A DNA stretch of 31,496 nt, taken from positions 1 through 31,496 of the IMG/VR virus record IMGVR_UViG_3300028280_000010; one strand, 5' to 3'. Position 1 is the first letter of the stretch; every line of letters starts with the position of its first letter. Source of the stretch: a virus (Duplodnaviria; Caudoviricetes). Both the position numbers and the translations under genes were made by a program. The notes under the pieces are model-generated. The model did not search any database, was not told the origin of the DNA, and worked only from the letters and a program-made list of their open reading frames with translations. Below are positions 13,961 to 31,496 of the stretch, in pieces.

Positions 13961-14210
13961 TTTTTTTATATTGTGCTGTTATGACTTTATTAACATATTT
14001 TGGTACCTTTTCAACGAATTTAATAATATCCTTGTCAAGTCCCTCGTCGAAATCCTTTTGCGGTATTTTCGTTGTTTTCATATCAGGCATCCTAAGAAAA
14101 TTATACGTCTGTTCCTTTTTATCCCTACATACAAACGCAAATAACTGACCTGCATATGGTCCATGGTGACATGCATAAACATTTCCTGAATTTATTTTAG
14201 TTTTGCGCAT
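13941..14210 (-). CDS. Hypothetical protein
   Basis: 89-aa ORF overlapping both neighbours. Confidence 0.6.
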   Translation of the reverse strand: MRKTKINSGNVYACHHGPYAGQLFAFVCRDKKEQTYNFLRMPDMKTTKIPQKDFDEGLDKDIIKFVEKVPKYVNKVITAQYKKNENTNN

Positions 14211-15156
14211 AAATCTTAACTAATTCTTCTAATTGACTGTCAAAATCAGTATATAAAGGTTCAAAAAATAGTTCTTCTTGAATCTTACTGCAGTCAATGC
14301 TATATCTAAAATCATGACCAAGTCTATCTTCGACAAACACCGCACTTTTATCTAAATCCTTATTCATTATCTTGCAGATTTTATCAACTAATTCGATATT
14401 TGTAAATTCTAATCCAGACCCGATGTTATATACTTCATTTTTGCCTTTTGTCGCGACTGCCCAAACAGCTAAATTATGATCATACACGTGTATCCACTCG
14501 CGGATATTTAAACCTTCACCGTAAATTGGTACTTTCTTATTTTTACTAAGTGATTTTATAATGGTCGGTATGAATTTTTCACTATGCTGATTAGGACCGT
14601 AATTATTGCAGCATCGAGTAATACTAATATTGCAATTAAATGTATTAATGTACGCGTTACATAAGAGATCGCTTGATGCCTTACTAGCAGCATATGGAGA
14701 ACGAGGGTCAATCGGAGTCGACTCAGTAAATGAGGGGTCATTAAACCCTAAATGTCCGTAAACCTCATCAGTTGAAATATGTACCATCTTACCGTATTTT
14801 GCATTACGGAAACACTCGAGTAAATTCTGCGTACCCACTACATTAGATTGTATAAAAATAGACGGATCTTTAATACTATTATCGACGTGAGACTCTGCAG
14901 CGAAGTGGAATATATAGTCAAATTTATCTTCTGTCTCAAAAAGCATATCTAGCTTCTTTTTATCTACTAAATTAAATGTATATTCTTTATCACATAAACC
15001 AGCTACATATTTTTTATTTGACGCGTACCCGTTTTTATCTAGACACACTATACGATGCTGCGGGAAATTATCTCTAATAAATCGGATAAAATTACCTCCT
15101 ATAAATCCGTAACCGCCGGTTACTAAAATATTTCTTCCATCATTACTTTGCTTCAT
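14197..15156 (-). CDS. rmlB: dTDP-glucose 4,6-dehydratase
   Basis: ILVTGGYGFIG, HFAAESHVDNSI, HISTDEVYG, SPYAASKASSD, NNYGPNQHSEKFIP, REWIHVYDH, DRLGHDFRY. ATG 15156 preferred over the track's 15162. Confidence 0.95.
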   Translation of the reverse strand: MKQSNDGRNILVTGGYGFIGGNFIRFIRDNFPQHRIVCLDKNGYASNKKYVAGLCDKEYTFNLVDKKKLDMLFETEDKFDYIFHFAAESHVDNSIKDPSIFIQSNVVGTQNLLECFRNAKYGKMVHISTDEVYGHLGFNDPSFTESTPIDPRSPYAASKASSDLLCNAYINTFNCNISITRCCNNYGPNQHSEKFIPTIIKSLSKNKKVPIYGEGLNIREWIHVYDHNLAVWAVATKGKNEVYNIGSGLEFTNIELVDKICKIMNKDLDKSAVFVEDRLGHDFRYSIDCSKIQEELFFEPLYTDFDSQLEELVKIYAQN

Positions 15157-15901
15157 AACCAATTTTATTATTTGTTCTCGTTTGTATAGCTTTTACAAAA
15201 TTACCAGCATCTAATAAATCGTCAATTGTACCGCAATCAAACCACGCAGCTCCTTTATCCAATTTATAAATGCTAATATTTTTCTCTGCTATATACTGCT
15301 TAATTACATCGACGATTTCGTATTCACCGCGATTGCTTTTCTTACAATTCTTTGCTTTATCGATGACTGTATCATCGAAGAAGTATAAGCCGGGTATAGC
15401 GTAATTACTTGGTGCATCAACGGGTTTTTCAATAACATCAATTAATACCCCATCATCATCAAAAGCAGCAACTCCATATGCATTCGGGTTATTAACTTCA
15501 TAACCAAATATAATATTTTCATCTGGTAAGATATTTGCAAGATCTTCGTTTAATGTATCGCTATAAAAAATATTATCCCCTAAAGCTAATACAACTGAAT
15601 GTCCCTTAATATATTCTTCTGCTAAAATAAATGCTTGCGCTAAACCATTAGGGTCTTCTTGCATTACAATATTCTTTTTTACTGGTAAGTCTAGCTTCTT
15701 AATTAATTTTTTAAAATTATAATACTGATCTGGTTTGATAATAAAGATAATTTCATCCACACCAGCATCCAACACCGTCTGTATGGGATATAGTAATAGC
15801 GGTTTATCGTAAACTGGTAAAACTTGTTTTGAGATACTATATGTTAGCGGGTACAATCTTGTACCGTTACCACCAGCTAAAATTATACCTTTTCTTGCCA
15901 T
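15143..15901 (-). CDS. rmlA: Glucose-1-phosphate thymidylyltransferase
   Basis: Start re-assigned to MARKGIILAGGNGTRLYPLT (15901); SKQVLPVYDKP, LALGDNIF, EKP, RGEYEI and WFDCGT motifs. Confidence 0.95.
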   Translation of the reverse strand: MARKGIILAGGNGTRLYPLTYSISKQVLPVYDKPLLLYPIQTVLDAGVDEIIFIIKPDQYYNFKKLIKKLDLPVKKNIVMQEDPNGLAQAFILAEEYIKGHSVVLALGDNIFYSDTLNEDLANILPDENIIFGYEVNNPNAYGVAAFDDDGVLIDVIEKPVDAPSNYAIPGLYFFDDTVIDKAKNCKKSNRGEYEIVDVIKQYIAEKNISIYKLDKGAAWFDCGTIDDLLDAGNFVKAIQTRTNNKIGYEAK

Positions 15902-16746
15902 AATTCTGATTTTTGTAAAATAGCGCAATTAAGTCTAATATAATATTCTTCATCTCCAAAATCAAAATCAAAGTCTCTCTTAGCTTTACTATTATCTAAT
16001 ACACAATTACTTCTATTAGCTTTGATTGGTAAATCTTCATACGGTACAAATTCCCATTTATCGTTTTGCAAACCGTATTCAGTCATAATATCTGTAACTT
16101 CTTTTGTTGATAAAGTATTACTATGTACTGCATTATAAATACCTGGTTTAAAATTCTCTGCAACTACCTCAACAAACTCACATAATCTTCCTACATCAGT
16201 TTTACTATTTTTAAAGTTAATAATGTTATTGTATTTCTTAAGTTTAGAAAGAAGATTCTTATGGTCCATCTTACCTGTAACTGGCATTCTAATACGAATA
16301 ATATTAGTAAAGTCTTTATCTAAAAACATCTCGCTTAAATGCTTTGTCTTACTATAAAAACTAGAATCGGGATTATATATACCAAAATTAGGTTCGTCGT
16401 CTTCTACATAATCTTTATCGTAACCGGTATATATACAACCAGAACTCACGTTAATAAATTTAGCATTTGCAGCTTTACACTCTTCTTCAATTACTAGCGG
16501 CACTGTAATGTTATATAACGTACACGAAGCTTTATTATCTTCGCATGCATCTACGTTAGGGTAACCTGTATATCCACATGTATTAACTATAACATCAATT
16601 TTATGCGTTTTAATAAATTCTCGAAGACGATACGGTACGTGATACTGATCGTCTGTCTGGTTAAGAAGGTATGTAAGATGGTTATCTGAAAGGTAACTAT
16701 TAAGATATTTACCAATAAACCCTGATCCGAGTATAGCTATATTCAT
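15883..16746 (-). CDS. NDP-4-keto-6-deoxyglucose 3,5-epimerase/4-reductase (RmlD-fold, NRS/ER-like)
   Basis: LGSGFIG Rossmann motif, GYTGYPNVDACE, SSGCIY, PNF...SSFYSKTK and IRIRMP resemble the bifunctional NRS/ER (UER1-type) subfamily. Confidence 0.8.
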   Translation of the reverse strand: MNIAILGSGFIGKYLNSYLSDNHLTYLLNQTDDQYHVPYRLREFIKTHKIDVIVNTCGYTGYPNVDACEDNKASCTLYNITVPLVIEEECKAANAKFINVSSGCIYTGYDKDYVEDDEPNFGIYNPDSSFYSKTKHLSEMFLDKDFTNIIRIRMPVTGKMDHKNLLSKLKKYNNIINFKNSKTDVGRLCEFVEVVAENFKPGIYNAVHSNTLSTKEVTDIMTEYGLQNDKWEFVPYEDLPIKANRSNCVLDNSKAKRDFDFDFGDEEYYIRLNCAILQKSELWQEKV

Positions 16747-18783: not shown

Positions 18784-19641
18784 TTATACGTCAAGACCTT
18801 CAAGTAGCTCTTTTAGAACTTCATCCTCATTATCATCTTTTTTAGTTTCAGTAACAGGAGTTGCTACCGGTGCAGATTCAATAGGTGTATTAACAACTAC
18901 GTCTTTAACAACGTTATTATCTGCTGATGCATCTCTTACATAATAATGCTCATCCATCATAGTCTTAAGCTCACCTACACTCTTAACACTAAATACACTA
19001 GTTAGATCAAACACATTATCATAAATTACCTCATGTTTATCTTCGTCTAAGTTATCAATTGCACTCGGCATACCAAACTTTGACGAAACGTAAGTTGGAA
19101 AATCACCTTGCTTCTCAACCTTTACTCTAAAGTTAACACCGTTAGGTCCTAGGTCAAAAATACGAGGACCTAACTCTGCTGCATCTTCCCCTTCAATAGC
19201 ATCGGTAATAATATTATGAATTTGCTTACCGTATCGAAGCATCTTTACCTTACCATTATTTTCTGGATTAACAGGATCGTTAACAACATAAACATTAACT
19301 AACCATTTCTCAGAACGCATAATTGCCTTAGCCTTTTCTTTTTCTTCTTCATTACCAGTACGAAGAATCTTATAGCGCTCTTCAGCAATAGGATCTCTTT
19401 CACCAAAGGTTTGAAGAGAAATAGCACTAGTATATTGACCAGTTGCAAAACTATTCCAACCATGTTGGTAATAATGAAAGAATGTCTTGGAAGGATCTTT
19501 CGCGTAAGGTAATAACCTTACTGTAAAAGTATTACCAGGAGGTGTCTTTAAGATATCACCTATTGCACTATTATTATTATCATTATCTGCTGCTAATGCA
19601 GACTTAATACTATCGAACATTGAACTTGTTATATTACTCAT
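18784..19641 (-). CDS. Single-stranded DNA-binding protein (T4 gp32-like)
   Basis: VRLLP, HGW, FGERDPIAE, WLVNVYVVNDPVNPENNGKVKMLRYGKQI, IFDL...GVNFRVK, PTYVSSKF and an acidic tail. Confidence 0.9.
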   Translation of the reverse strand: MSNITSSMFDSIKSALAADNDNNNSAIGDILKTPPGNTFTVRLLPYAKDPSKTFFHYYQHGWNSFATGQYTSAISLQTFGERDPIAEERYKILRTGNEEEKEKAKAIMRSEKWLVNVYVVNDPVNPENNGKVKMLRYGKQIHNIITDAIEGEDAAELGPRIFDLGPNGVNFRVKVEKQGDFPTYVSSKFGMPSAIDNLDEDKHEVIYDNVFDLTSVFSVKSVGELKTMMDEHYYVRDASADNNVVKDVVVNTPIESAPVATPVTETKKDDNEDEVLKELLEGLDV

Positions 19642-20288: not shown

Positions 20289-20565
20289 TGAACCCATTAA
20301 ATTTATTCAAAAATTTAGTTACATATTTACTTTTAGTTACCGATGGTTCGGTTTGAATATATTTTTTAATAGCTGTAAATTCATTTTCTTCTTCAATAAT
20401 ACTAATAAAAATATCACGCAAGGCTTTATCTTCAAGTATCTTTAAAAAAACTGTTGCAAAATTCATCTTTTTATCATTTACTAAAGACACAAAAGTGCAA
20501 AAAGAATAAAATGATTTTTCAAATTCTTGATTTTGTATATCTTCAAACGGTATATTATTTTTCAT
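20281..20565 (-). CDS. Hypothetical protein
   Basis: 94-aa ORF overlapping both neighbours. It occupies the T4 gp33 position but no motif was recognised. Confidence 0.55.
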   Translation of the reverse strand: MKNNIPFEDIQNQEFEKSFYSFCTFVSLVNDKKMNFATVFLKILEDKALRDIFISIIEEENEFTAIKKYIQTEPSVTKSKYVTKFLNKFNGFND

Positions 20566-21442
20566 TTATTGGTTTAAGAAATTTAGTAATATTAATTATT
20601 GAATCGTTTAAAATTCCACCTGCAGCGTCTTCATGACCACCACCTTCTATTAGTTTTGAAGCTAACTTACCCATATTTAAAGTGCATTCTTTACCACGTC
20701 TCATGTATACGCTTTTACCCTTAATGTTTATCATAATAACAAAATCAACCTTATATTTTTTTATAATATTTTCTGCAATTTCATTCGGACTAAAAGTTAC
20801 CATTACACCAGCTACATTATAATCATTTCCACCGATCTTAATATTACCAAAATTGATAGGTTCTTCTTTAAAAAAACTGTCAATTTTATTTTCTATAATT
20901 TTAAGAGCATTTTTATGGAATTGATTAAAACCAAAAAAGCCATCTTTAAAATCTTGTTCAAATTTGTTAACTCTATCTCCAGTATAAGACCAAAATACTT
21001 GATTTAATGGTTTACTAAACGGTAAGCTTAAAGTATAGCTGTCATAGTCGTCAATTAATTTTATTAAAAGTTTTTGATTTTTATTTAACTTACCCTCTAA
21101 CTTAAATGTATCGTAAATTAATTTGGTACATGAAGTATAATCTTTAATAATCGGCTTAGCATTTTTATAATTATTGATTAATTCAGTATGCTCTTTATGG
21201 TGATCAACTATTATAACATTTTTTAAATCACATAGTTTTATTTCATCTTCTTTTAAATTGAGATCACTAATTATTACCAGGTCATAGTCATTGAATTTAA
21301 AAGAAGATGCAACATCAGTTAAAAACTTTTTTTCAGTAGTGACTGAATATGATATAGACGCATTTTCATATGCATACTTTAAACATAAGTATGAACCAGC
21401 TCCATCGAGATCTGCATCAGTAATTATATGGATCTTAGGCAT
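20555..21442 (-). CDS. DHH/DHHA1 family phosphoesterase
   Basis: TDADLDG, IISDL, IIVDHH, IDDYD and the DHHA1 motif GGGHEDAAG. Confidence 0.9.
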   Translation of the reverse strand: MPKIHIITDADLDGAGSYLCLKYAYENASISYSVTTEKKFLTDVASSFKFNDYDLVIISDLNLKEDEIKLCDLKNVIIVDHHKEHTELINNYKNAKPIIKDYTSCTKLIYDTFKLEGKLNKNQKLLIKLIDDYDSYTLSLPFSKPLNQVFWSYTGDRVNKFEQDFKDGFFGFNQFHKNALKIIENKIDSFFKEEPINFGNIKIGGNDYNVAGVMVTFSPNEIAENIIKKYKVDFVIMINIKGKSVYMRRGKECTLNMGKLASKLIEGGGHEDAAGGILNDSIINITKFLKPINEK

Positions 21443-21464: not shown

Positions 21465-22805
21465 TTAATTACTCAACATGTTAAGAGTACTAGTTAAATC
21501 AGACATTTCACTACCTTCATCATCAACGTTTAACGTTTCATCTTCAGAAATAGTTAACGTATCGTAATTTAATCTTAATGCTGTATAACCGTAATTAGCA
21601 CCATACCTATTTTTCATCATACCCATTTTAACAATACCTAACTCTTTATCTTCATCATCTTGAAATATACTAAAAATACAGTCAGCTGTAGCAGCCATTC
21701 CAATAGATTCTGATATAGTATCTAAACCAGGGTTCTCTTCATCGTAACCTGACCTATTTAACTGGGTAGCAGAAATAAAAGGGCATTCAAAAACGTAACT
21801 CAATGCTCGTATACCTTCAGCAACATGCTTAACTCTTTCATAAGAATTATCACCAAGAGGGCTTTTTAGTAGATTTAAATAATCAAGAACAACTGCATCT
21901 ACTTTAATACCTCTATTTTTTAATTCGGTAATATAACCTTGTATATTCTGAGGTGTAACAGTACTAGGAGGAAACTCTTTAATTAAAATTTTACTATTTG
22001 GTTTACCATTATTATAATTTTTTATTTGAGCTGATAGGGATTGACCAGCTCCTTTTAATTCTTTCATTGGTATTCTAGTTATATTAGATGATAATCTTCT
22101 TGCGTATATCATCTCAGACATTTCAAGACTTATAACTAAAACTGTCTTACCTTTAGCAGCTATATTACAAGCTATATTACCTAAAAATATAGATTTACCA
22201 ACATTAGATTCACCTGCAAATACATATAACGATCTACCATTTTCTAAGAAACCTCCATCTATTTTATCATCTAACCATTTCCAACCGGAAGATATAGTAG
22301 GTTGGTCTACATTCAAGTCATCTACAACCTTATCAATATTTTCAAATAAATCTAAACCTATTTCTTCTTTTAAATTAACATTACAACTTTTTTCAAAACT
22401 ATCTAAAATAAAACTCGTATTAACTTCACCTTTACTAACATCTTCAGCAACTGATAACATTGTATTGTATATCGCTCTTTCTTTTAAGAAACGTTCAGTA
22501 TTAGAAGTTAACTCTTCATCGTTAAAGTTTTTATCAATATTAGAAAAATTCTTTACAACAGACTTAAAACTATCTTTTAATTCGTCATTAATTAAGTAAG
22601 ACTTTAACTCAGTTACAGTAGGTATACTTTGCCTCTTTACATAAAAACTTTTTATAAGACTAAAAACAGTCTTAATATTTTTATCATTAAAATAATCAGG
22701 CTTTATATGGTCTATAATTTGAGTTAGATAACTTTCGTTTGTCAAACTTTTATAAACTATAACTTGCTCGTAATAATCTAAATTTAATCTTCCTATTTCT
22801 TCCAT
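21465..22805 (-). CDS. Replicative DNA helicase (T4 gp41/DnaB-like)
   Basis: Walker A AGESNVGKS, ISLEMSE, IKEFPP, VLDYLNLL, SATQLNRSGY, ISESIG...TAD and KNRYG motifs. Confidence 0.95.
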   Translation of the reverse strand: MEEIGRLNLDYYEQVIVYKSLTNESYLTQIIDHIKPDYFNDKNIKTVFSLIKSFYVKRQSIPTVTELKSYLINDELKDSFKSVVKNFSNIDKNFNDEELTSNTERFLKERAIYNTMLSVAEDVSKGEVNTSFILDSFEKSCNVNLKEEIGLDLFENIDKVVDDLNVDQPTISSGWKWLDDKIDGGFLENGRSLYVFAGESNVGKSIFLGNIACNIAAKGKTVLVISLEMSEMIYARRLSSNITRIPMKELKGAGQSLSAQIKNYNNGKPNSKILIKEFPPSTVTPQNIQGYITELKNRGIKVDAVVLDYLNLLKSPLGDNSYERVKHVAEGIRALSYVFECPFISATQLNRSGYDEENPGLDTISESIGMAATADCIFSIFQDDEDKELGIVKMGMMKNRYGANYGYTALRLNYDTLTISEDETLNVDDEGSEMSDLTSTLNMLSN

Positions 22806-23470
22806 TTATTAATAAAGTAATGTTGACCATCGTAAAACTCTTTATCAGGGTTAGTTAATCCTGGACTAGAATGTATGATAGGTATATCAACTACACCTAT
22901 TATAACTTTGTTCCTATTACATTCAAGTGAGAAATCTAAATCGTAATAGTGCCATTTGCATGGGTATGTCTCATCGAATTTTACTTCTTCAGGTAACTGT
23001 TTAATATTAATACCAATAAATACTCCATCGATAATTAAACATCTGCTAGGGATAGACCCGAAAGAAGTATACATATATGACTCTTCATTCCCGTGAGCTA
23101 CACAACCTCTCTGATCCTTTCTCTCTGACATAAGATGCCATAAAGCAGGGTTGCCAATTTTACAGGAAGTAGCTCCAGCTAGCCCAAATACTGTATATCG
23201 GTTCGCACTATCCTGCAGACGAGATCGCAAGTCTCTTGTATTAATAAAAACATCATCATGTATAAAGACAGCAATATCAATATCATTCTGCTTAGCATCT
23301 TCTAAGAAATTATTATAGCATTTTTGCAAACTCCTAGTATTATTCTCTTCGTAATGTACATCAAACGGCATTATTGGACCATAATCTGCTAAAACGCGAT
23401 TTAAAGATTTATAGAGAGGTGTCGTCTCCTTTTTACTTTTTGTAGCTGTATAAATTTTTATGTTATTCAT
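22793..23470 (-). CDS. GT-A fold glycosyltransferase (GT2-like)
   Basis: SLQKCYN, AVFIHDDVFI (DxD-like), FGLAGA, IIDGVFIGIN, FDE, WHYYDLDFSL and IIHSSPG. Confidence 0.8.
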   Translation of the reverse strand: MNNIKIYTATKSKKETTPLYKSLNRVLADYGPIMPFDVHYEENNTRSLQKCYNNFLEDAKQNDIDIAVFIHDDVFINTRDLRSRLQDSANRYTVFGLAGATSCKIGNPALWHLMSERKDQRGCVAHGNEESYMYTSFGSIPSRCLIIDGVFIGINIKQLPEEVKFDETYPCKWHYYDLDFSLECNRNKVIIGVVDIPIIHSSPGLTNPDKEFYDGQHYFINKWKK

Positions 23471-23801
23471 AATCTTTGCGATCGTCTAATTCAGGCTTGT
23501 TTTCTCTATTCCAAATCATACCCATAATATTCCATAAAGCAGCACCTAGATGATCTTCACTTTCATCCCCAGTGAAATCTTCCATTAAATGTCTCATTGC
23601 TGAATCATATAAGACGGAATGCTTCATTCCCTTCTTCCAATTATTTTCATTATAAGTTTCTGCCCCTTGCAGATATCGCTTCATGACATCGTTAAGTGCT
23701 TTATGTGGTACAAGACTCATACGCAACTTACCATCAGCATTATCACGTTGAGCACCTGTATCAAATTGCCGCGGCTTGCCAGTTTGTTTTAGTTTATCCA
23801 T
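23463..23801 (-). CDS. dATP/dGTP diphosphohydrolase domain protein (DUF5664-type)
   Basis: FDTGAQRD..GKLRMSLVP...GAETYNENNWKKGM...DSAMRHL...EDHLGAALWN is the characteristic pattern of this family. Confidence 0.8.
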   Translation of the reverse strand: MDKLKQTGKPRQFDTGAQRDNADGKLRMSLVPHKALNDVMKRYLQGAETYNENNWKKGMKHSVLYDSAMRHLMEDFTGDESEDHLGAALWNIMGMIWNRENKPELDDRKDYE

Positions 23802-24267
23802 TTATAATATTATAAACTGGTTCCTTATATATTATATCTTGGGAGTTAAAATCATTTTCAACTATTTCAAAATTTTTACCTAACCATTTTTTATAAAAGC
23901 TACATCCATCGCTTCTTATATCGGAATTAACGTAATAAAAATCAATATCATCTTTATGTTTAAAGATTGCATTTTTAATCAAAAGTTTTGCTACACCCTG
24001 ACCACGGGCACCTTTATTTGTAATAATAAAATATGTTTTTAACGTTTTTTCAAATTTATCATTAACTGTATATGCATGTAGACCAAGTACTCGACCTGCA
24101 TCATCGGTACACAACTCAATAGGAAATTTTTTCCACCAATTTCTACCAGACCATACATGTCCAAACGTATTTAGTATAAAGGAATCTGTATTATCGTAAA
24201 CAAATTTGATAAATCTTAGTTTATCTAACTCATTACATTCATTAATTGTTACATAATTTATATTCAT
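23794..24267 (-). CDS. GNAT family acyltransferase
   Basis: Acyl-CoA-binding motif A (ITNKGARGQGVAKLLI) and a motif B-like VNS....CSFYKK. Confidence 0.75.
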   Translation of the reverse strand: MNINYVTINECNELDKLRFIKFVYDNTDSFILNTFGHVWSGRNWWKKFPIELCTDDAGRVLGLHAYTVNDKFEKTLKTYFIITNKGARGQGVAKLLIKNAIFKHKDDIDFYYVNSDIRSDGCSFYKKWLGKNFEIVENDFNSQDIIYKEPVYNIING

Positions 24268-24935
24268 AAAGTTAAAAATGGTGAATCATACACAAAACCA
24301 TCTATTTCTGTTAGACCTTCGTATGAATAATTGTAAAGGATACCTTGTTTTACTTCTTTATATTCTAAACCTTTGATAGATGATATATTACCATCTTTAT
24401 AAAACAACGTGCTACCTTGTCTAGCTATATATACGTTCATTGTTTTAATGTTTACTATCCAAAGTGCAAAAGTACCTTTAAGTTTTTCTATTGTATATAA
24501 AATATTTTGAATTTCAGCTTCAGTATCTTCACAAGGACCATGATTATATTCAAATTCATCTAATAATGCTGGTATAATACTACTATCTACCGGGTTATCA
24601 TGCATTGGAAGGTATTCATCTATTAACTCCTCATAATTAGTTAAAACACCATTATGTGCTACTATCCAATCACCAAACCAAAACGGGTGAGACGTTTCAT
24701 CCTTCCAATCCCTACCTGTTTCTGTCGGCGCTTGATTATGTCCAAGGTATAAAAAACGGTCACCCTTCGGTAGATTTATTTTATTCCAATCAACCCCTCC
24801 ATTTTCTTTCATTATATGATAATTTGCACCGCCATAACAATAAAATATACCGGTAGAAAAATTACCACGTTTTTTATTAGCTTGCTCTAATATTTCAAAC
24901 GTACTTAGATTATTACTGCAATATATACCACACAT
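24264..24935 (-). CDS. Class II (Ntn) glutamine amidotransferase, stand-alone
   Basis: MCGI with catalytic Cys2, RG, LGHNQAPT, SHPF, VAHNGVLTN, VDS and LKGTFALW. Confidence 0.9.
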   Translation of the reverse strand: MCGIYCSNNLSTFEILEQANKKRGNFSTGIFYCYGGANYHIMKENGGVDWNKINLPKGDRFLYLGHNQAPTETGRDWKDETSHPFWFGDWIVAHNGVLTNYEELIDEYLPMHDNPVDSSIIPALLDEFEYNHGPCEDTEAEIQNILYTIEKLKGTFALWIVNIKTMNVYIARQGSTLFYKDGNISSIKGLEYKEVKQGILYNYSYEGLTEIDGFVYDSPFLTL

Positions 24936-24943
24936 ATAATTAT

Positions 24944-24971
24944 ATTATAGCATAAAATAGGATAAAATCAA
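24944..24971 (-). promoter_or_regulatory. Sigma70-like promoter TTGATT-N16-TATAAT with extended -10 (TGCTATAAT), heading the GATase-GNAT-DUF5664-GT-helicase run
   Basis: The -10 box ends 8 nt before ATG 24935; the -35 box overlaps the divergent late promoter AATAAATA (24970-24977). Confidence 0.7.
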
Positions 24972-24982
24972 TAAATAATAAT

Positions 24983-26359
24983 ATGAGTTTACATAACTGG
25001 AGTAATAAAAAAATTATCAACGAGAGTACTTCTAATTATATGCATAATATGCAAGATATTGACCTTGACATCGTTCAAGAAGCAAGAGGTAAAAAAATTG
25101 CAGATCCGCTTAGAGCAAAACTAATGGGTATGGAAGATATTAGAGATTTAAAAGGTACTATGACACCTAGATACTTTGCAACCAAGGTTATTAGATTTTT
25201 ACAAAAAGAAAACCCTGAAATAGATGTTGCAGATTTATCCGATGAAGATATACAACAAGCTATAAATGTCGTAGCTCAGGTATCAAAACCATTAGCACAA
25301 AAACCGGAAGTTAAGATTACGACAAGAGAAAGAGGTTCAGCAAAAGAAGGTCTCAAGAAAGGTGATACCGGTTTTGAGACTCTTCAATTGAATCTTGGTG
25401 GTGATACAAAATTAAAATCTGAAGGTGAAGTTGGGGAAAATGATTTATATACAGTCGTTAGCGACGGTTTAAAATATAGAGTAACTCTTAACAATTTTAA
25501 AGGTACACAAATTAATTTGGATGATATATCTCAAGATGACGTTGTTTCAGTTGTAATTGTAAAACCGAGTGAAATGGAAACAGTTGATAAATTTGGGGGT
25601 GAAGTCGATTTAGGTCAAAGAGAAAAATTAGTAGCTGACTACCCAGAAGGTGAAGAAGAAATGGATATGGATAGTGTTATTGATGCTGTTAAAAAAATGA
25701 GTTTTGATAAAAATAAGTTAACAGCTGATAGATATGGTCGTAAACATGGTATTTCCCAAGAAGGTGATTTAGAAGATTATGAACTAGAAAATAGAAGAAT
25801 GAGAATGGATTTTCCAATAGACACAAGTGAAGAAATCGGACCAGAAGATGCTGAAGACTGTCCTTATAGTGATGAAGAAATTGACACCGAAAAAGCTGAT
25901 TTAGACGATGATGGTGAAATCTCTGAATACGAAAAGAGTAGAGGTGAAGCTATTGCTAAAGCGATGAAAAAGGAGCAAGAAAGAGCTGGTCAGTCACATG
26001 CAAGAGCAGTTGCTGATCATTATGAAGATGAAGAGGCAAATCTTGACAACACACCGCTTGAAGAATTATCTATTCTATCACCTGATGAATTTGAAATGGT
26101 ACAAAATTTCGAAAACTTTAATCCTGATGAATGGGGATACAATACACTTCAAAAATTCTACTTCAGAAAAAGAGAAGGTGGAGAAGATGAAGAGTTTTCA
26201 ACCAGCCAGTACATGTCAACAGCTCCTGTAGAAGCGAGAGAAGAAGCTGAAGAGGTTAAGATGTCTCAATTAGAGATTAATCAACATCTTGCTGTTCAAG
26301 AAAGACAACGAGTACAAAACTTATATGCACAGCAAAGGCGCCATACACACGGCTACTAA
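24983..26359 (+). CDS. Large acidic late protein with an EF-hand-like loop; candidate head-internal protein
   Basis: 458 aa; AATAAATA 5 nt upstream; KKIINE near the N-terminus; DLDDDGEISEYE loop; very E/D-rich C-terminal half. Confidence 0.7.
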   Translation: MSLHNWSNKKIINESTSNYMHNMQDIDLDIVQEARGKKIADPLRAKLMGMEDIRDLKGTMTPRYFATKVIRFLQKENPEIDVADLSDEDIQQAINVVAQVSKPLAQKPEVKITTRERGSAKEGLKKGDTGFETLQLNLGGDTKLKSEGEVGENDLYTVVSDGLKYRVTLNNFKGTQINLDDISQDDVVSVVIVKPSEMETVDKFGGEVDLGQREKLVADYPEGEEEMDMDSVIDAVKKMSFDKNKLTADRYGRKHGISQEGDLEDYELENRRMRMDFPIDTSEEIGPEDAEDCPYSDEEIDTEKADLDDDGEISEYEKSRGEAIAKAMKKEQERAGQSHARAVADHYEDEEANLDNTPLEELSILSPDEFEMVQNFENFNPDEWGYNTLQKFYFRKREGGEDEEFSTSQYMSTAPVEAREEAEEVKMSQLEINQHLAVQERQRVQNLYAQQRRHTHGY

Positions 26360-26378
26360 AGTATTTTAATATACAAAT

Positions 26379-26414
26379 AAAAAAAGGTATGAAATATTTC
26401 ATACCTTTTTTTTT
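26379..26414. terminator. Bidirectional Rho-independent terminator
   Basis: Perfect 34-bp palindrome AAAAAAAGGTATGAAAT/ATTTCATACCTTTTTTT between convergent genes, with U-tracts on both strands. Confidence 0.9.
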
Positions 26415-26416
26415 AC

Positions 26417-27163
26417 TTATTTTACAATTGATATACAATCATTCTTTTCATACACAGCGTCTAGCTTATCTTGCTGTTTATATAAAAGAGGATCTTGTAA
26501 CTTTGCGTCTATAAAACCTTTTAATCTAAGAGCACTACTTGCACTGTTTGCATCACAAGGATATTCACCAGAATAGCATGTATATGTATCAGCAAAATTA
26601 ACTCCAAGCTCTACACCATTTAAAATAATCTGTTTTTTACTCATTTTTAGTAAAGGAGCTCTCACTCTTACATCTACTTCACGATTTAATAAACAAATCT
26701 GATTCATTTTATCTACAAATTGTACCGAACCATCCCAATAACCAGCAAGACTATCGGCTTCTGCTGCACCGTACCACACTTCATCAGCTTCCATTTTTTC
26801 TGCATATGATAGTAATATGCTTAAAAACATTAAATTACGAAATGGTACATATGATTTAGGTTGAGCCTCACCCATTATATCTTTTACATCAGGTGTATCT
26901 ATATCATCATTAGTAAGAGAAGATGTATCAGCTATATCCTTAATATAAGTAACGTCTAATAATTTATTAGTAAATGTAACATTAGGAAAGTCATGCTTAG
27001 CATTTACTAACTGCTTTTCAGCTGCTTCTAATTCTTTATCATGACGCTGACCATAATTAAAAGTTACAGTATGTACTTCATTATATTGTTCAGCTGCTTT
27101 ATAAAGCAGTACAGATGAATCCATTCCACCTGATAAGGTTATAACTATTTTATTCTTCTTCAT
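26417..27163 (-). CDS. queC: QueC-family PP-loop ATPase (7-cyano-7-deazaguanine synthase-like) with an atypical zinc site
   Basis: LSGGMDSS, FNYGQRH..EL, SSLT, SYVPFRNLMFLS, APLLKMSK and TYTCY. Deviations: YWDGS for the usual YPDCR and CDANSASSALR for the usual CGxCxSCxxR. Confidence 0.85.
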   Translation of the reverse strand: MKKNKIVITLSGGMDSSVLLYKAAEQYNEVHTVTFNYGQRHDKELEAAEKQLVNAKHDFPNVTFTNKLLDVTYIKDIADTSSLTNDDIDTPDVKDIMGEAQPKSYVPFRNLMFLSILLSYAEKMEADEVWYGAAEADSLAGYWDGSVQFVDKMNQICLLNREVDVRVRAPLLKMSKKQIILNGVELGVNFADTYTCYSGEYPCDANSASSALRLKGFIDAKLQDPLLYKQQDKLDAVYEKNDCISIVK

Positions 27164-28839: not shown

Positions 28840-29472
28840 ATGCAAGGATTTGTTTACAAAATAACTAATAATATAAACGGAAAAAATTATATTGGTATAA
28901 CTACAAGAAGCATTAAAGAACGATGGAAAGAACACTGCCGTTTATCAGTTCTTAAAAAAAATAAATTTAAGCTATACCCTGCAATGAACAAGTATGGTAA
29001 AGATAACTTTACGATATGTGAGCTTTATAAAACTACAGATATGGATGATTTAAATCTAAAAGAGAAATTCTATATACAACATTATAATACAATTGATATC
29101 GGTTATAATATTTTAACCGGTGGTTATAATTCTAAGCATACAGATTCATCAAAAAAACGTATAAGTGAGGCTAGATTAAAATACGGTTCCCCGTTTAATA
29201 TAGGTAGAAAGCATTCAAAAGAGCGTACTGAAAAAATGCATAAAACCAGAATGGAAAGATATGGTACTTTAAAGACCTGTAAGTCAGGCGAAGAAAATCC
29301 AAATTATAAACCTTTCGATAAGCAAACATTTGAACAGTTAGTTAGAGAAGGTAAAAAATTACATCAAATAACAGAAATACTTTCTCTAGATGAATCTACA
29401 GTAAGATTAAAATATAAAAAAATATACGGTAATATTAGCTTCCCCTCACTTAAAAAAATGTTAATTAAGTAA
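28840..29472 (+). mobile_element. Free-standing GIY-YIG homing endonuclease gene (Seg-like)
   Basis: FVYKITNNINGKNYIGIT..IKERWKEH, E..YI and GYN catalytic domain; NUMOD3-like HTDSSKKRIS and GRKHSKE; GEENPNY; C-terminal HTH-like segment. Antisense to its neighbours. Confidence 0.88.
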
Positions 29473-31496
29473 ATCGAAAAGATTAGTCATCACCGCATTA
29501 CCTGGTTTTTGAATAGACCATTTAACATTATCGTAAAATCTTTCAATGATATTGTAAAGATTTTTCTCGAACATTTTATCGTAATCAACGTGAAATATTT
29601 TTTTAAACTCATCTGGGTAATAATATTTGTATGCTAAACTTGGTAAGTTATACGGGTTAGGTTGTTGTAAGTAAAAATATCTAACTTTATCACCTGAACT
29701 AATAGTTTCATACTTTTTCTCTATATCAAATTTTTTAAGTAGCATATTATGATAGTAAGCAGCTTTAACGTGTATAGGCATACCTTTTGCAGTTTTCCAA
29801 TCATCACATTGACCTGCATATTTTTCATAGCCTTTTAAACCAGATACAAACGTAATATCTTCGACTGGTAAATCTTTAAATATCTTATACGTTTTATCTA
29901 GAACTGCATTAGTTTTAGCAATACTTTGAGTAGATAGCATCGTTTCGATAATTTCTTTTACATGAGGTTTAATAGCATCAGGCATTGTACTTCTAACAAC
30001 CTCAACCCCAGTATACTTATACTTATCCATTGGTATACCTTCATCATCTAAAATATGCATAACATAGCGTTTCTTCTGCAAAAACACACCTACATCAGCT
30101 ATAACCTCACGTTTAAAGATAAATCTACAGTCTTTAGAATTTAAGTTTTTACCACCCCATACTTTAATTTCATCATTTAAGAAATCTTCAATATTTTGTA
30201 CTTCATCATGAAATGCTTGAGTTAATTTACCTGAATCATCTTTAAATGTTAAACCGGCTTTAACGAGAGGTTTAACTGAAATATAACTACTATCAGTATC
30301 GTTATATATGATACAATCATTTAGAGTTTTTTCATCTTCAATATTAGCTTTTTCTTTAATATACTTTTTAAGTAATTCGTTTGATTGCTTAATAACTGCT
30401 TGACCAGTTAATGTAATTGAAGCTGCAATATCATCATCACCAAAAGGTGCATGCTTATTACCAAAGTAACCGTAAATGGAATTAATTAAAACCTTAATAC
30501 ATAACTGCTTTGCATCTAATTGTTCTATCTCAAATTTAAGTTCTTTATTCTTATTCTTAGAATATTCTCTTTTTAATTTACCTAGTTTAGTTTTAACAGT
30601 AACCCTTTTATCATAGTAATAATCTAAAATTTCAGGCATAACACCTTTTTTCTTTTGAGTAAATAATACGTTCGCTTTACTAATAGCTATTTCTTCCTTT
30701 TTACAGAACTTTAAAAACTTCTCATGACTCAATGTAAAAACTTGACCATTAGCATGCCGTATAACTATTTCATTATTATTCTTATCTTCAATCTTACCTA
30801 CTTTAGTTTCCGGAGACATATTTAGAGATATCATCACATTCGGATACAGAGAGTTAGCATCAAACGATATAATATTTTCTTGAAACCCCTTCAAAGGCTC
30901 ACCAACATAAGCACCCGGGTTCTTACCAGTGTCTGCATTTCTAATAAACGAAGGTACACACTGACCACGCTTTCTTGATATAACTGCAGTTGCACCATTA
31001 ATTACCGATAGAGATCCCATAGCAGCTTCAAAGGTAGTTAAACCCACGTAAGCTAACATCTTAATTAGTTCTGTATACTTTAGTTTATCTTCTAAGTTAG
31101 TTAGCAGTCTAACGTCTTGAATATTATATTCAACAAACGTCTGCCAATCAGTATCAGCTAGAGTAGCAAGATTCATATTACCAAAATCTACTTTCTTTTC
31201 ACCTAACTCGGCCTCACCAATCGCATCAAGTTTATAACTTTCTTTTACACCTACCGAAAAACGTTTATATACGTCTAAATAGTCAATTAATGAAATACCT
31301 TCAACATACCAACGTTGCTGCTCTTGACCAAACTGACCCCGTATTGTTCTACTATAAACCTTACCAGAAGGTGATATTCTATTAGTCCATTCCTCACCAA
31401 GTATACGAGTACACCTATTTAAGATATAAGGTAAATCAAAAAACTCACTATTCCAACCTGACATAATATCAGGATAATCTTTTTCAACATACTCAA
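29461..31496 (-). CDS. Family B DNA polymerase (T4 gp43-like), 5'-truncated by the window edge
   Basis: Frame open to the window end (...EYVEKDYPDIMSGWNSEFFD). ExoII GWNSEFFD, SYKLD, ExoIII YNIQDV; polymerase motifs SFDANSLYP, KVLINSIYG, YNDTDS and KKRY. Confidence 0.97.
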   Translation of the reverse strand, partial: EYVEKDYPDIMSGWNSEFFDLPYILNRCTRILGEEWTNRISPSGKVYSRTIRGQFGQEQQRWYVEGISLIDYLDVYKRFSVGVKESYKLDAIGEAELGEKKVDFGNMNLATLADTDWQTFVEYNIQDVRLLTNLEDKLKYTELIKMLAYVGLTTFEAAMGSLSVINGATAVISRKRGQCVPSFIRNADTGKNPGAYVGEPLKGFQENIISFDANSLYPNVMISLNMSPETKVGKIEDKNNNEIVIRHANGQVFTLSHEKFLKFCKKEEIAISKANVLFTQKKKGVMPEILDYYYDKRVTVKTKLGKLKREYSKNKNKELKFEIEQLDAKQLCIKVLINSIYGYFGNKHAPFGDDDIAASITLTGQAVIKQSNELLKKYIKEKANIEDEKTLNDCIIYNDTDSSYISVKPLVKAGLTFKDDSGKLTQAFHDEVQNIEDFLNDEIKVWGGKNLNSKDCRFIFKREVIADVGVFLQKKRYVMHILDDEGIPMDKYKYTGVEVVRSTMPDAIKPHVKEIIETMLSTQSIAKTNAVLDKTYKIFKDLPVEDITFVSGLKGYEKYAGQCDDWKTAKGMPIHVKAAYYHNMLLKKFDIEKKYETISSGDKVRYFYLQQPNPYNLPSLAYKYYYPDEFKKIFHVDYDKMFEKNLYNIIERFYDNVKWSIQKPGNAVMTNLFDLLN

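Follow-up and report, generated by a model that had tools for sequence, protein, structure and literature searches.

A GNAT-type acyltransferase as a likely replacement for DpdN among the preQ1 DNA-modification genes of T4-like phages

Results

The DNA analysed here, called the window, is a 31,496-nt fragment of a T4-like phage and the whole of its record (G000; IMG/VR IMGVR_UViG_3300028280_000010). Its minus strand carries genes for QueC, a class II glutamine amidotransferase (GATase), a GNAT acyltransferase, a DUF5664 (PF18909) protein, a GT2-like glycosyltransferase (GT2) and a gp41 helicase, which a sequence-only reading had taken for a candidate DNA hypermodification system coupled to the helicase. 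Gene calls confirmed the six open reading frames (ORFs), their strand and order, the overlaps of 4, 8, 8 and 13 nt down the GATase-GNAT-DUF5664-GT2-helicase chain and the 14-nt overlap of QueC with uvsX, and the families were confirmed with Pfam, PHROG and NCBIfam. Below, G labels are related genome records, L labels loci and P labels proteins from a profile search. The single promoter proposed to head the chain is present as a site; since the region holds 14 promoter-like sites against 9.2 +/- 3.2 in shuffles, not clearly an excess, it is kept as a candidate only. A terminator-like hairpin follows QueC, which therefore probably lies outside the GATase transcript. Relatives retain the gene order uvsX-QueC-(variable antisense gene)-GATase-slot-GT2-helicase. 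The antisense 458-aa ORF is probably outside the pathway; in some relatives extra antisense ORFs adjoin its equivalent.

The slot directly after the GATase gene holds, in relatives, either this GNAT or a PurN-like formyltransferase: among 56 distinct GATase loci, 35 carry the GNAT, 13 the formyltransferase and seven neither, and one is cut. Compared with 50,697 phage records, the slot formyltransferase matched only DpdN of Flavobacterium phage immuto_2-6A (hereafter immuto; four records, 40.5% identity, E 5e-30), and identity to immuto DpdN is 40-45% across the formyl-type relatives. The immuto protein (YP_010114479.1) was named DpdN as a predicted formyltransferase of 7-aminomethyl-7-deazaguanine (preQ1) (PMC10516641). 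Gene order in immuto is DpdA3, a small ORF, DpdN, kinase and QueF, and the DpdN orthologue of the relatives lies between DpdA3 and kinase in 16 of 61 DpdA3 loci. Whole-record searches, mostly of fragments chosen via these genes, found the GNAT in 10, DpdN in 16, neither in seven and both in none of 33 records; 14 further records gave DpdN in one (G044, in the slot), and another 19 gave the GNAT in three, DpdN in four and both in none. Among complete records, G014 and G034 have the GNAT with DpdA3 and QueF and no DpdN, and G012, G013 and G051 have DpdN with DpdA3 and QueF and no GNAT.

The GNAT is not PurN-like, as it falls outside PF00551, the DpdN family, to which the alternative slot protein belongs. 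Its motif A (R88-G89-x-G91-x-A93) is invariant, and its structural model (predicted local distance difference test score 85) has the GNAT fold, with matches to GNAT structures at E 1e-8. Fold searches of the GNAT and GT2 named no substrate, tblastn of the window GNAT among cultured phages gave no match, and a cluster look-up returned one generic name only. Exchange within one slot suggests that the window GNAT likely works like DpdN, though it is no member of its family.

A profile search of 1.84 billion proteins returned 40 relatives of the GNAT, 21 of them at E 1e-10 or better, and two distant contexts (L392 and L478) were examined. The first encodes an AAA_28 kinase fused to this GNAT (P0020); between its kinase half and the DpdA3-linked kinase of the relative G001, identity is 35%. 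The fusion directly precedes QueF and has QueD, FolE and QueE close by, and the polymerase of this unrelated phage is of the PolIII type. In the unrelated phage L478, genes for QueC, GATase, a NUDIX protein and dUTPase are followed by DpdA3, GNAT, kinase, an HNH-like ORF, QueF and FolE2, with QueE further on. This is the immuto order with the GNAT in the DpdN position, and no DpdN match was found in the record, which is 77% complete. Given these kinase and QueF contexts, the GNAT family is likely a non-homologous replacement of DpdN, and the group that it transfers is probably acetyl. Other distant members (P0011, P0018, P0032) carry long N-terminal extensions that have no Pfam match or, in P0032, a fused 5-hydroxymethyldeoxyuridine DNA kinase-like domain.

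Within the window, which is only a 31.5-kb fragment, QueC is the sole member of the preQ1 set, folE, queD, queE and dpdA being absent for that reason. It had been suggested that these genes lie elsewhere or that the substrate is not a deazaguanine; all were found outside this region in relatives, and the latter option was dropped. The 185-kb relative G001 (88% complete) was read throughout, and 130 of its 197 ORFs, together with eight proteins from other loci (138 in all), were searched against Pfam. Relative to the window, its polymerase and helicase are 96% identical, its QueC 87% and its GNAT 76%. It carries QueF, QueD and FolE2 by Pfam, QueE, and a protein 51% identical to DpdA3 of immuto. 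FolE, QueD, QueE and QueC thus stand with QueF in one genome, as they also do in G012 and G013; the QueD match of G014 is weak (E 6e-8). DpdA3 and QueF are found in all five complete relatives (G012, G013, G014, G034, G051). FolE2 replaces FolE1 in G001 and G014, and a FolE1 (PF01227) search of five relatives gave no match, for G001 because FolE2 is present. An AAA_28 kinase follows DpdA3 within 2.5 kb in 59 of 61 distinct DpdA3 loci, QueF usually being next. The QueF of the relatives is bimodular, with both Pfam domains, and matches immuto QueF at E 5e-74, which points to preQ1 over archaeosine. The window phage group thus appears to have the gene set for preQ1 and DpdA3, which for the window genome itself is judged from its kin, and the presence of these genes in near relatives argues that the base is a preQ1 derivative. 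Elsewhere in G001, adenylate/guanylate cyclase, FecR, CsgG and CsgF genes stand in a row, followed by spermidine synthase and two AdoMet decarboxylase-like genes (L065:18804-19874 and L066:1849-8959).

Of the canonical QueC motifs, shown to be essential in PMC13329287, SGGxDS, YxQxHxxE and VPxRN are all present, as is the Tyr that follows the first zinc Cys, and the residues concerned (S11-G12-G13-x-D15-S16, Y37/Q39/H41/E44, V106-P-F-R-N110, Y197) are invariant. YWDG/S stands for YPDC, with the essential Tyr and Asp retained and Pro and Cys lost, and the zinc motif C(x)8CxxCxxC is incomplete: two of four Cys remain in the window and one in other relatives, four are kept in G013, G016 and L034, and immuto has none. 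In immuto, host QueC could supply preQ0 (7-cyano-7-deazaguanine). QueC variants with most or all zinc cysteines lost (window, L395) recur across the group and in immuto, and some outgroups keep four.

The catalytic set of the GATase (C2, R23, H83, N95-G96, D117) is invariant in 12 diverse members; we take the roles of these Cys, Arg, His, Asn-Gly and Asp residues to be those known from GlmS. Among cultured phages, tblastn of the GATase gave only matches of 24-30%. GATase and QueC are separate ORFs 1.5 kb apart, with the antisense gene and the hairpin between them; they also adjoin in L478, and one PHROG, phrog_10428, matches both. The simplest role for the GATase, judged from its family and neighbours, is likely that of ammonia donor for QueC. 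That the split pair amidates or amidinates a base, as had been proposed, is made unlikely by the preQ1 to which the relatives' QueF points and by the unfused genes with a hairpin between.

Inheritance of the slot gene was compared with that of its neighbours in trees that omit loci lacking the gene concerned and, save for the helicase tree, seven empty-slot loci. DpdN types form one branch in the trees of the helicase (15 DpdN types among loci with a filled slot; support 100/99), gp32 (100/99) and polymerase (100/99; 6 of 27 rows), and the split of the clamp by acyl type is weak (75/55). The label changes six to seven times for GATase, GT2 (seven), DUF5664, QueC and uvsX, and approximately unbiased (AU) tests, which for GATase, GT2 and DUF5664 used 35 loci having all four genes, reject a single DpdN clade for each (GATase p 2e-80, GT2 4e-48, DUF5664 7e-5, QueC 3e-63, uvsX 2e-5). 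Between L036 (GNAT) and L037 (DpdN), GATase is 98%, DUF5664 96% and GT2 95% identical, as against 60% for the helicase. Since the slot gene follows the helicase in 53 of 53 loci while both slot flanks move between types, the acyl gene is linked to replication genes and not to GT2.

The flanks of the GNAT/DpdN slot recombine across types, and the tie of acyl type to helicase, gp32 and polymerase lineages was unexpected. A single branch records a single historical event, and related loci have their labels in common, so that the tie does not prove co-adaptation. The primase does not follow acyl type, formyl types being 83-85% identical to the window and some GNAT types 75-78%; the terminase of one formyl-type record is 74% identical, against 77-94% for close GNAT types, a hint from one record that the structural genes might follow it. 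That the whole replisome tracks acyl type was considered and rejected as too wide, given the primase and the weak clamp split. The rooted helicase tree suggests that DpdN beside DpdA3 is the older state, that the GNAT was gained in the slot and that DpdN was regained there once. One primase gene (G009:C1:30542-31569) lies in two frames, perhaps through sequence error.

For GT2 the GT-A fold was confirmed; its DxD-like motif (H71-D72-D73) is invariant, and its best fold match is majastridin (2qgi, TM 0.69). Among cultured phages tblastn found no match to it, and searches of solved structures gave nothing useful for DUF5664, GT2 (by sequence) or the kinase. Of 64 distinct distant GT2 loci, 56 have the GATase gene immediately upstream of GT2 (six are cut and two are without it), GT2 occurs in five of five complete relatives, and in L466, L473 and L477 QueC, GATase and GT2 remain a group apart from the helicase. 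In L443 and L468 GT2 has neither QueC nor GATase close by, L468 also being without the helicase, and in L384 GATase adjoins the helicase without GT2. No GT2 match was found in the 77% complete L478 record. Of the five genes and the rml block (below), whose co-occurrence in related phages had been proposed as a check, QueC, GATase and GT2 are together in most loci, and the acyl gene fails to co-segregate with any of GATase, DUF5664 and GT2. Genes for cytidylyltransferase-like, cupin and GDP-sugar proteins are inserted on either side of GT2 at L010:13672-16139, L011:4307-5416 and L037:11531-13409.

Immuto gave no match to the GATase or GT2 profile or to PF18909, although the same types of search do find matches in relatives; capped preQ1 therefore does not need these proteins. 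The most likely target of GT2 is not the acylated base. DUF5664 is lacking in many GNAT loci and in three of five complete relatives (G013, G034, G051), and lies within the DpdA3 cluster in L144. The one characterised stand-alone member prefers dATP and hydrolyses dATP, dUTP and dGTP to deoxynucleoside monophosphates (dNMPs) (Poubanne et al. 2026, PMC12884076). The gene is best regarded as an optional, accessory enzyme of the purine deoxynucleoside triphosphate (dNTP) pool; a part as required dGTP remover was rejected on its absence from those three genomes. A PF15891 nucleoside 2-deoxyribosyltransferase-like gene lies between GNAT and DUF5664 in G014 (L191:5837-6322), and similar genes accompany DUF5664 in Z-genome phages. 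The rmlD-rmlA-rmlB block of the window (14197-16746), without an rmlC match, had been put forward as a sugar source; this is not supported, as rml genes vary and rmlA has no match in G001.

Two further genes of the window differ among relatives. A GIY-YIG homing endonuclease gene (28840-29472, plus strand) overlaps the 3' end of the polymerase gene and is missing in most relatives, and a DHH phosphoesterase gene after the helicase (20555-21442) is shortened to 125-130 aa in L010, L020, L024 and L029, which include both acyl types.

Table 1. Features of the window: positions, strand and supporting matches.
Feature	Position	Strand	Remarks
gp32 single-strand binding protein	18784..19641	-	Family match; lineage follows acyltransferase type
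gp41-like replicative helicase	21465..22805	-	Family match; lineage follows acyltransferase type
GT2, GT-A fold glycosyltransferase	22793..23470	-	PF13712 E 3e-11, above cut-off
DUF5664 / PF18909 dATP-dGTP diphosphohydrolase	23463..23801	-	E 6e-20; 71.5 bits (cut-off 27)
GNAT in acyltransferase slot	23794..24267	-	PF00583 E 4e-5, above cut-off
Stand-alone class II glutamine amidotransferase (GATase)	24264..24935	-	PF13522 E 1.5e-5, slightly below cut-off; GlmS N-domain E 3e-9
Candidate sigma-70-type promoter	24944..24971	-	10/12 consensus matches and TG extension
Variable acidic 458-aa ORF	24983..26359	+	No family match; 25-98% identity, often partial, in relatives
Two-way terminator-like hairpin	26379..26412		Between QueC and antisense gene
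QueC (7-cyano-7-deazaguanine synthase)	26417..27163	-	PF06508 E 1e-52 and TIGR00364, both above cut-off; canonical catalytic motifs, reduced zinc site
Family B DNA polymerase, truncated by window end	29461..31464	-	Family match; lineage follows acyltransferase type

Discussion

The reading favoured here, and a likely one, is that the GNAT makes N-acetyl-dPreQ1 in place of the formyl form of the DpdN relatives. FolE2, QueD and QueE, encoded in the relatives, would make 7-carboxy-7-deazaguanine (CDG), which QueC would convert to preQ0 with ammonia that the separate GATase likely frees from glutamine, and QueF, also encoded in relatives, would reduce preQ0 to preQ1. DpdA3 has been linked with complete guanine replacement, nearly all positions being modified in the three DpdA3 phages that were measured (Cui et al., PMC10516641), and here too it would exchange guanine for the preQ1 base, probably almost throughout. 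The GNAT would then move an acyl group, most likely acetyl, from acyl-CoA to the aminomethyl group, a step proposed from the slot exchange with DpdN. Protection from host nucleases is the likely purpose. A 7-deazaguanine DNA modification with a base-decorating acyltransferase is thus retained from the sequence-only reading, and a single five-gene pathway is not.

Several observations weigh against this reading. The window genome shows QueC alone of the preQ1 genes, the remainder being taken from relatives, and QueC activity is not assured with two of four zinc cysteines and YWDG for YPDC. In the alignment, Gln68 of the GATase occupies the position of the GlmS Arg that presumably binds the glutamine carboxylate; an invariant Arg75 is nearby. 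The fold matches of the GNAT are generic, at 10-17% identity, and single out no acyl donor. Its neighbours, a GlmS-like GATase and a glycosyltransferase, also suit amino-sugar chemistry. That GNAT and DpdN never occur together is firm for the five complete records, and the L392 evidence comes from the genes near the GNAT. The DpdN assignment is itself a prediction (PMC10516641, section 19).

A single deazaguanine might be decorated by both the GNAT and GT2 and so be acylated as well as glycosylated, as the sequence-only reading had it. The close association of GATase with GT2, the presence of GT2 in every complete relative and the persistence of the QueC-GATase-GT2 group away from the helicase would suit this; GT2, however, does not track the acyl gene, and occurs at two loci without QueC or GATase nearby. 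The immuto base is formylated deoxy-preQ1 (fdPreQ1) with no sugar, as given in section 18 of PMC10516641, and immuto has no GT2 match, nor does the 77% complete L478 record with its GNAT pathway. N-acyl-preQ1 has no free hydroxyl, and G001 holds many other glycan genes. The acyltransferase half of that proposal, action on preQ1, is likely, and the two-enzyme base is unlikely.

A product of archaeosine (dG+), alone or mixed with acyl-preQ1, would be expected if the split GATase and QueC acted like the fused Gat-QueC of phage 9g, which gives dG+ (PMC6884629). The two genes are neighbours in the window and in the unrelated L478, and phrog_10428 covers both; they are nevertheless unfused and separated by a terminator-like hairpin, the relatives' bimodular QueF is close to that of immuto, and some genomes that have the GATase also keep an intact DpdA3-DpdN-kinase-QueF run, which together make this outcome improbable. 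Much the same low probability attaches to the idea that the GATase, the GNAT or formyltransferase and GT2 have nothing to do with DNA bases and make up a module of amino-sugar chemistry for glycans of the virion or host. A GlmS-like GATase, an N-acyltransferase and a GT-A enzyme do stand in a row with an rml block nearby, and sugar-nucleotide genes are inserted in the same run in relatives. Yet the slot formyltransferase is the orthologue of a protein encoded between DpdA3 and kinase, and the formyltransferase of the G001 glycan cluster is a different one, matching the DpdN profile at E 9e-5 as against 1e-48 or better for true members; the GNAT family, moreover, lies in DpdA3/QueF runs of unrelated phages, and the acyl gene is inherited with replication genes rather than with GT2.

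If N-acetyl-dPreQ1 is the product, the stage at which it is made bears on the tie to replication. All these modifications have been proposed to be post-replicative, and DpdA3 did not work in Escherichia coli (Cui et al., PMC10516641). Of six cultured DpdA3 phages, four (immuto, CP220, phiST and Ahp1, the last a DNMK hit) have a gene of a kinase family no more than two genes away from DpdA3; for the DpdA3 neighbour in BSP7 Pfam gave no match, and in RHph_I1_18 a dUTPase stands in place of a kinase. Pyrophosphohydrolase-type genes are near DpdA3 in immuto (PRA-PH), phiST (MazG) and L478 (NUDIX). Such a DpdA3-kinase-pyrophosphohydrolase set is what would be expected if the modified nucleotide were made first, and hints at this; the kinase could instead salvage modified dNMP. 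A bolder scheme, which we regard as possible but doubtful, is that guanine is wholly replaced by N-acetyl- or N-formyl-preQ1 through an acylated nucleotide made before replication: DpdA3 would act at the nucleotide level, the kinase phosphorylate, the acyltransferase cap and the pyrophosphohydrolase remove dGTP, and each type would then need a matching helicase, gp32 and polymerase. If so, two DNA chemistries would be maintained in distinct replication lineages, between which the surrounding genes are still exchanged. DpdA3 flanked by kinases, and often by pyrophosphohydrolases (PRA-PH, HD, MazG, NUDIX), is seen at L073:14273-16996, L387:4868-7361, L388:3597-5759, L390:5983-7433 and L478:5175-7956.

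The closest known system is the fdPreQ1/DpdN system of immuto (2023, PMC10516641), which shares DpdA3 (51%), QueF, the AAA_28 kinase that separates these two and a QueC whose zinc site is incomplete, and whose DpdN has orthologues (40-45%) in the formyl-type relatives. It differs in that here a GNAT of unrelated fold stands instead of DpdN, the acyl gene belongs to the replication cluster, G001 and G014 have FolE2 instead of FolE1, and GATase, GT2 and DUF5664 are without match in immuto. The validated dPreQ1 methyltransferase DpdM, which yields mdPreQ1, is likewise a small enzyme capping the preQ1 amine in phage DNA, with methyl and not acyl (PMC10516641). Gat-QueC of Enterobacteria phage 9g (Hutinet et al. 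2019, PMC6884629) also links a class II GATase with QueC; here the genes are separate, relatives have QueF and DpdA3, and the predicted product is acyl-preQ1 rather than archaeosine. DUF5664 belongs to the same Pfam family as the enzyme of Z-genome phages (PMC12884076). QatC/Cap9 of protein deazaguanylation (PMC13329287) shares the QueC fold; the phage QueC (248 aa) has YxQxHxxE and VPxRN, which QatC lacks, and no CD-NTase or qatA/qatD neighbour appears among the window family hits, so that protein deazaguanylation is unlikely from motifs and context. A GNAT of an unrelated Aeromonas phage, base unknown, is mentioned in PMC8056088. A literature search that did not cover subscription journals or supplements found no report of acetyl-preQ1 in DNA, and 'acetyl' is absent from the main text of PMC10516641 and PMC6884629.

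N-acetyl-dPreQ1 made by a GNAT that replaces DpdN would, as seems probable, be a variation on preQ1 DNA modification; it predicts a ninth 7-deazaguanine DNA base, of exact mass and with a named enzyme. The GNAT/DpdN exchange in one slot supports the assignment of DpdN, still unproven, and the kinase beside DpdA3 might explain both the complete substitution by DpdA3 and its failure in E. coli when expressed without partners. The tie between acyl type and replication lineage provides a natural experiment on how a replisome handles fully modified DNA.

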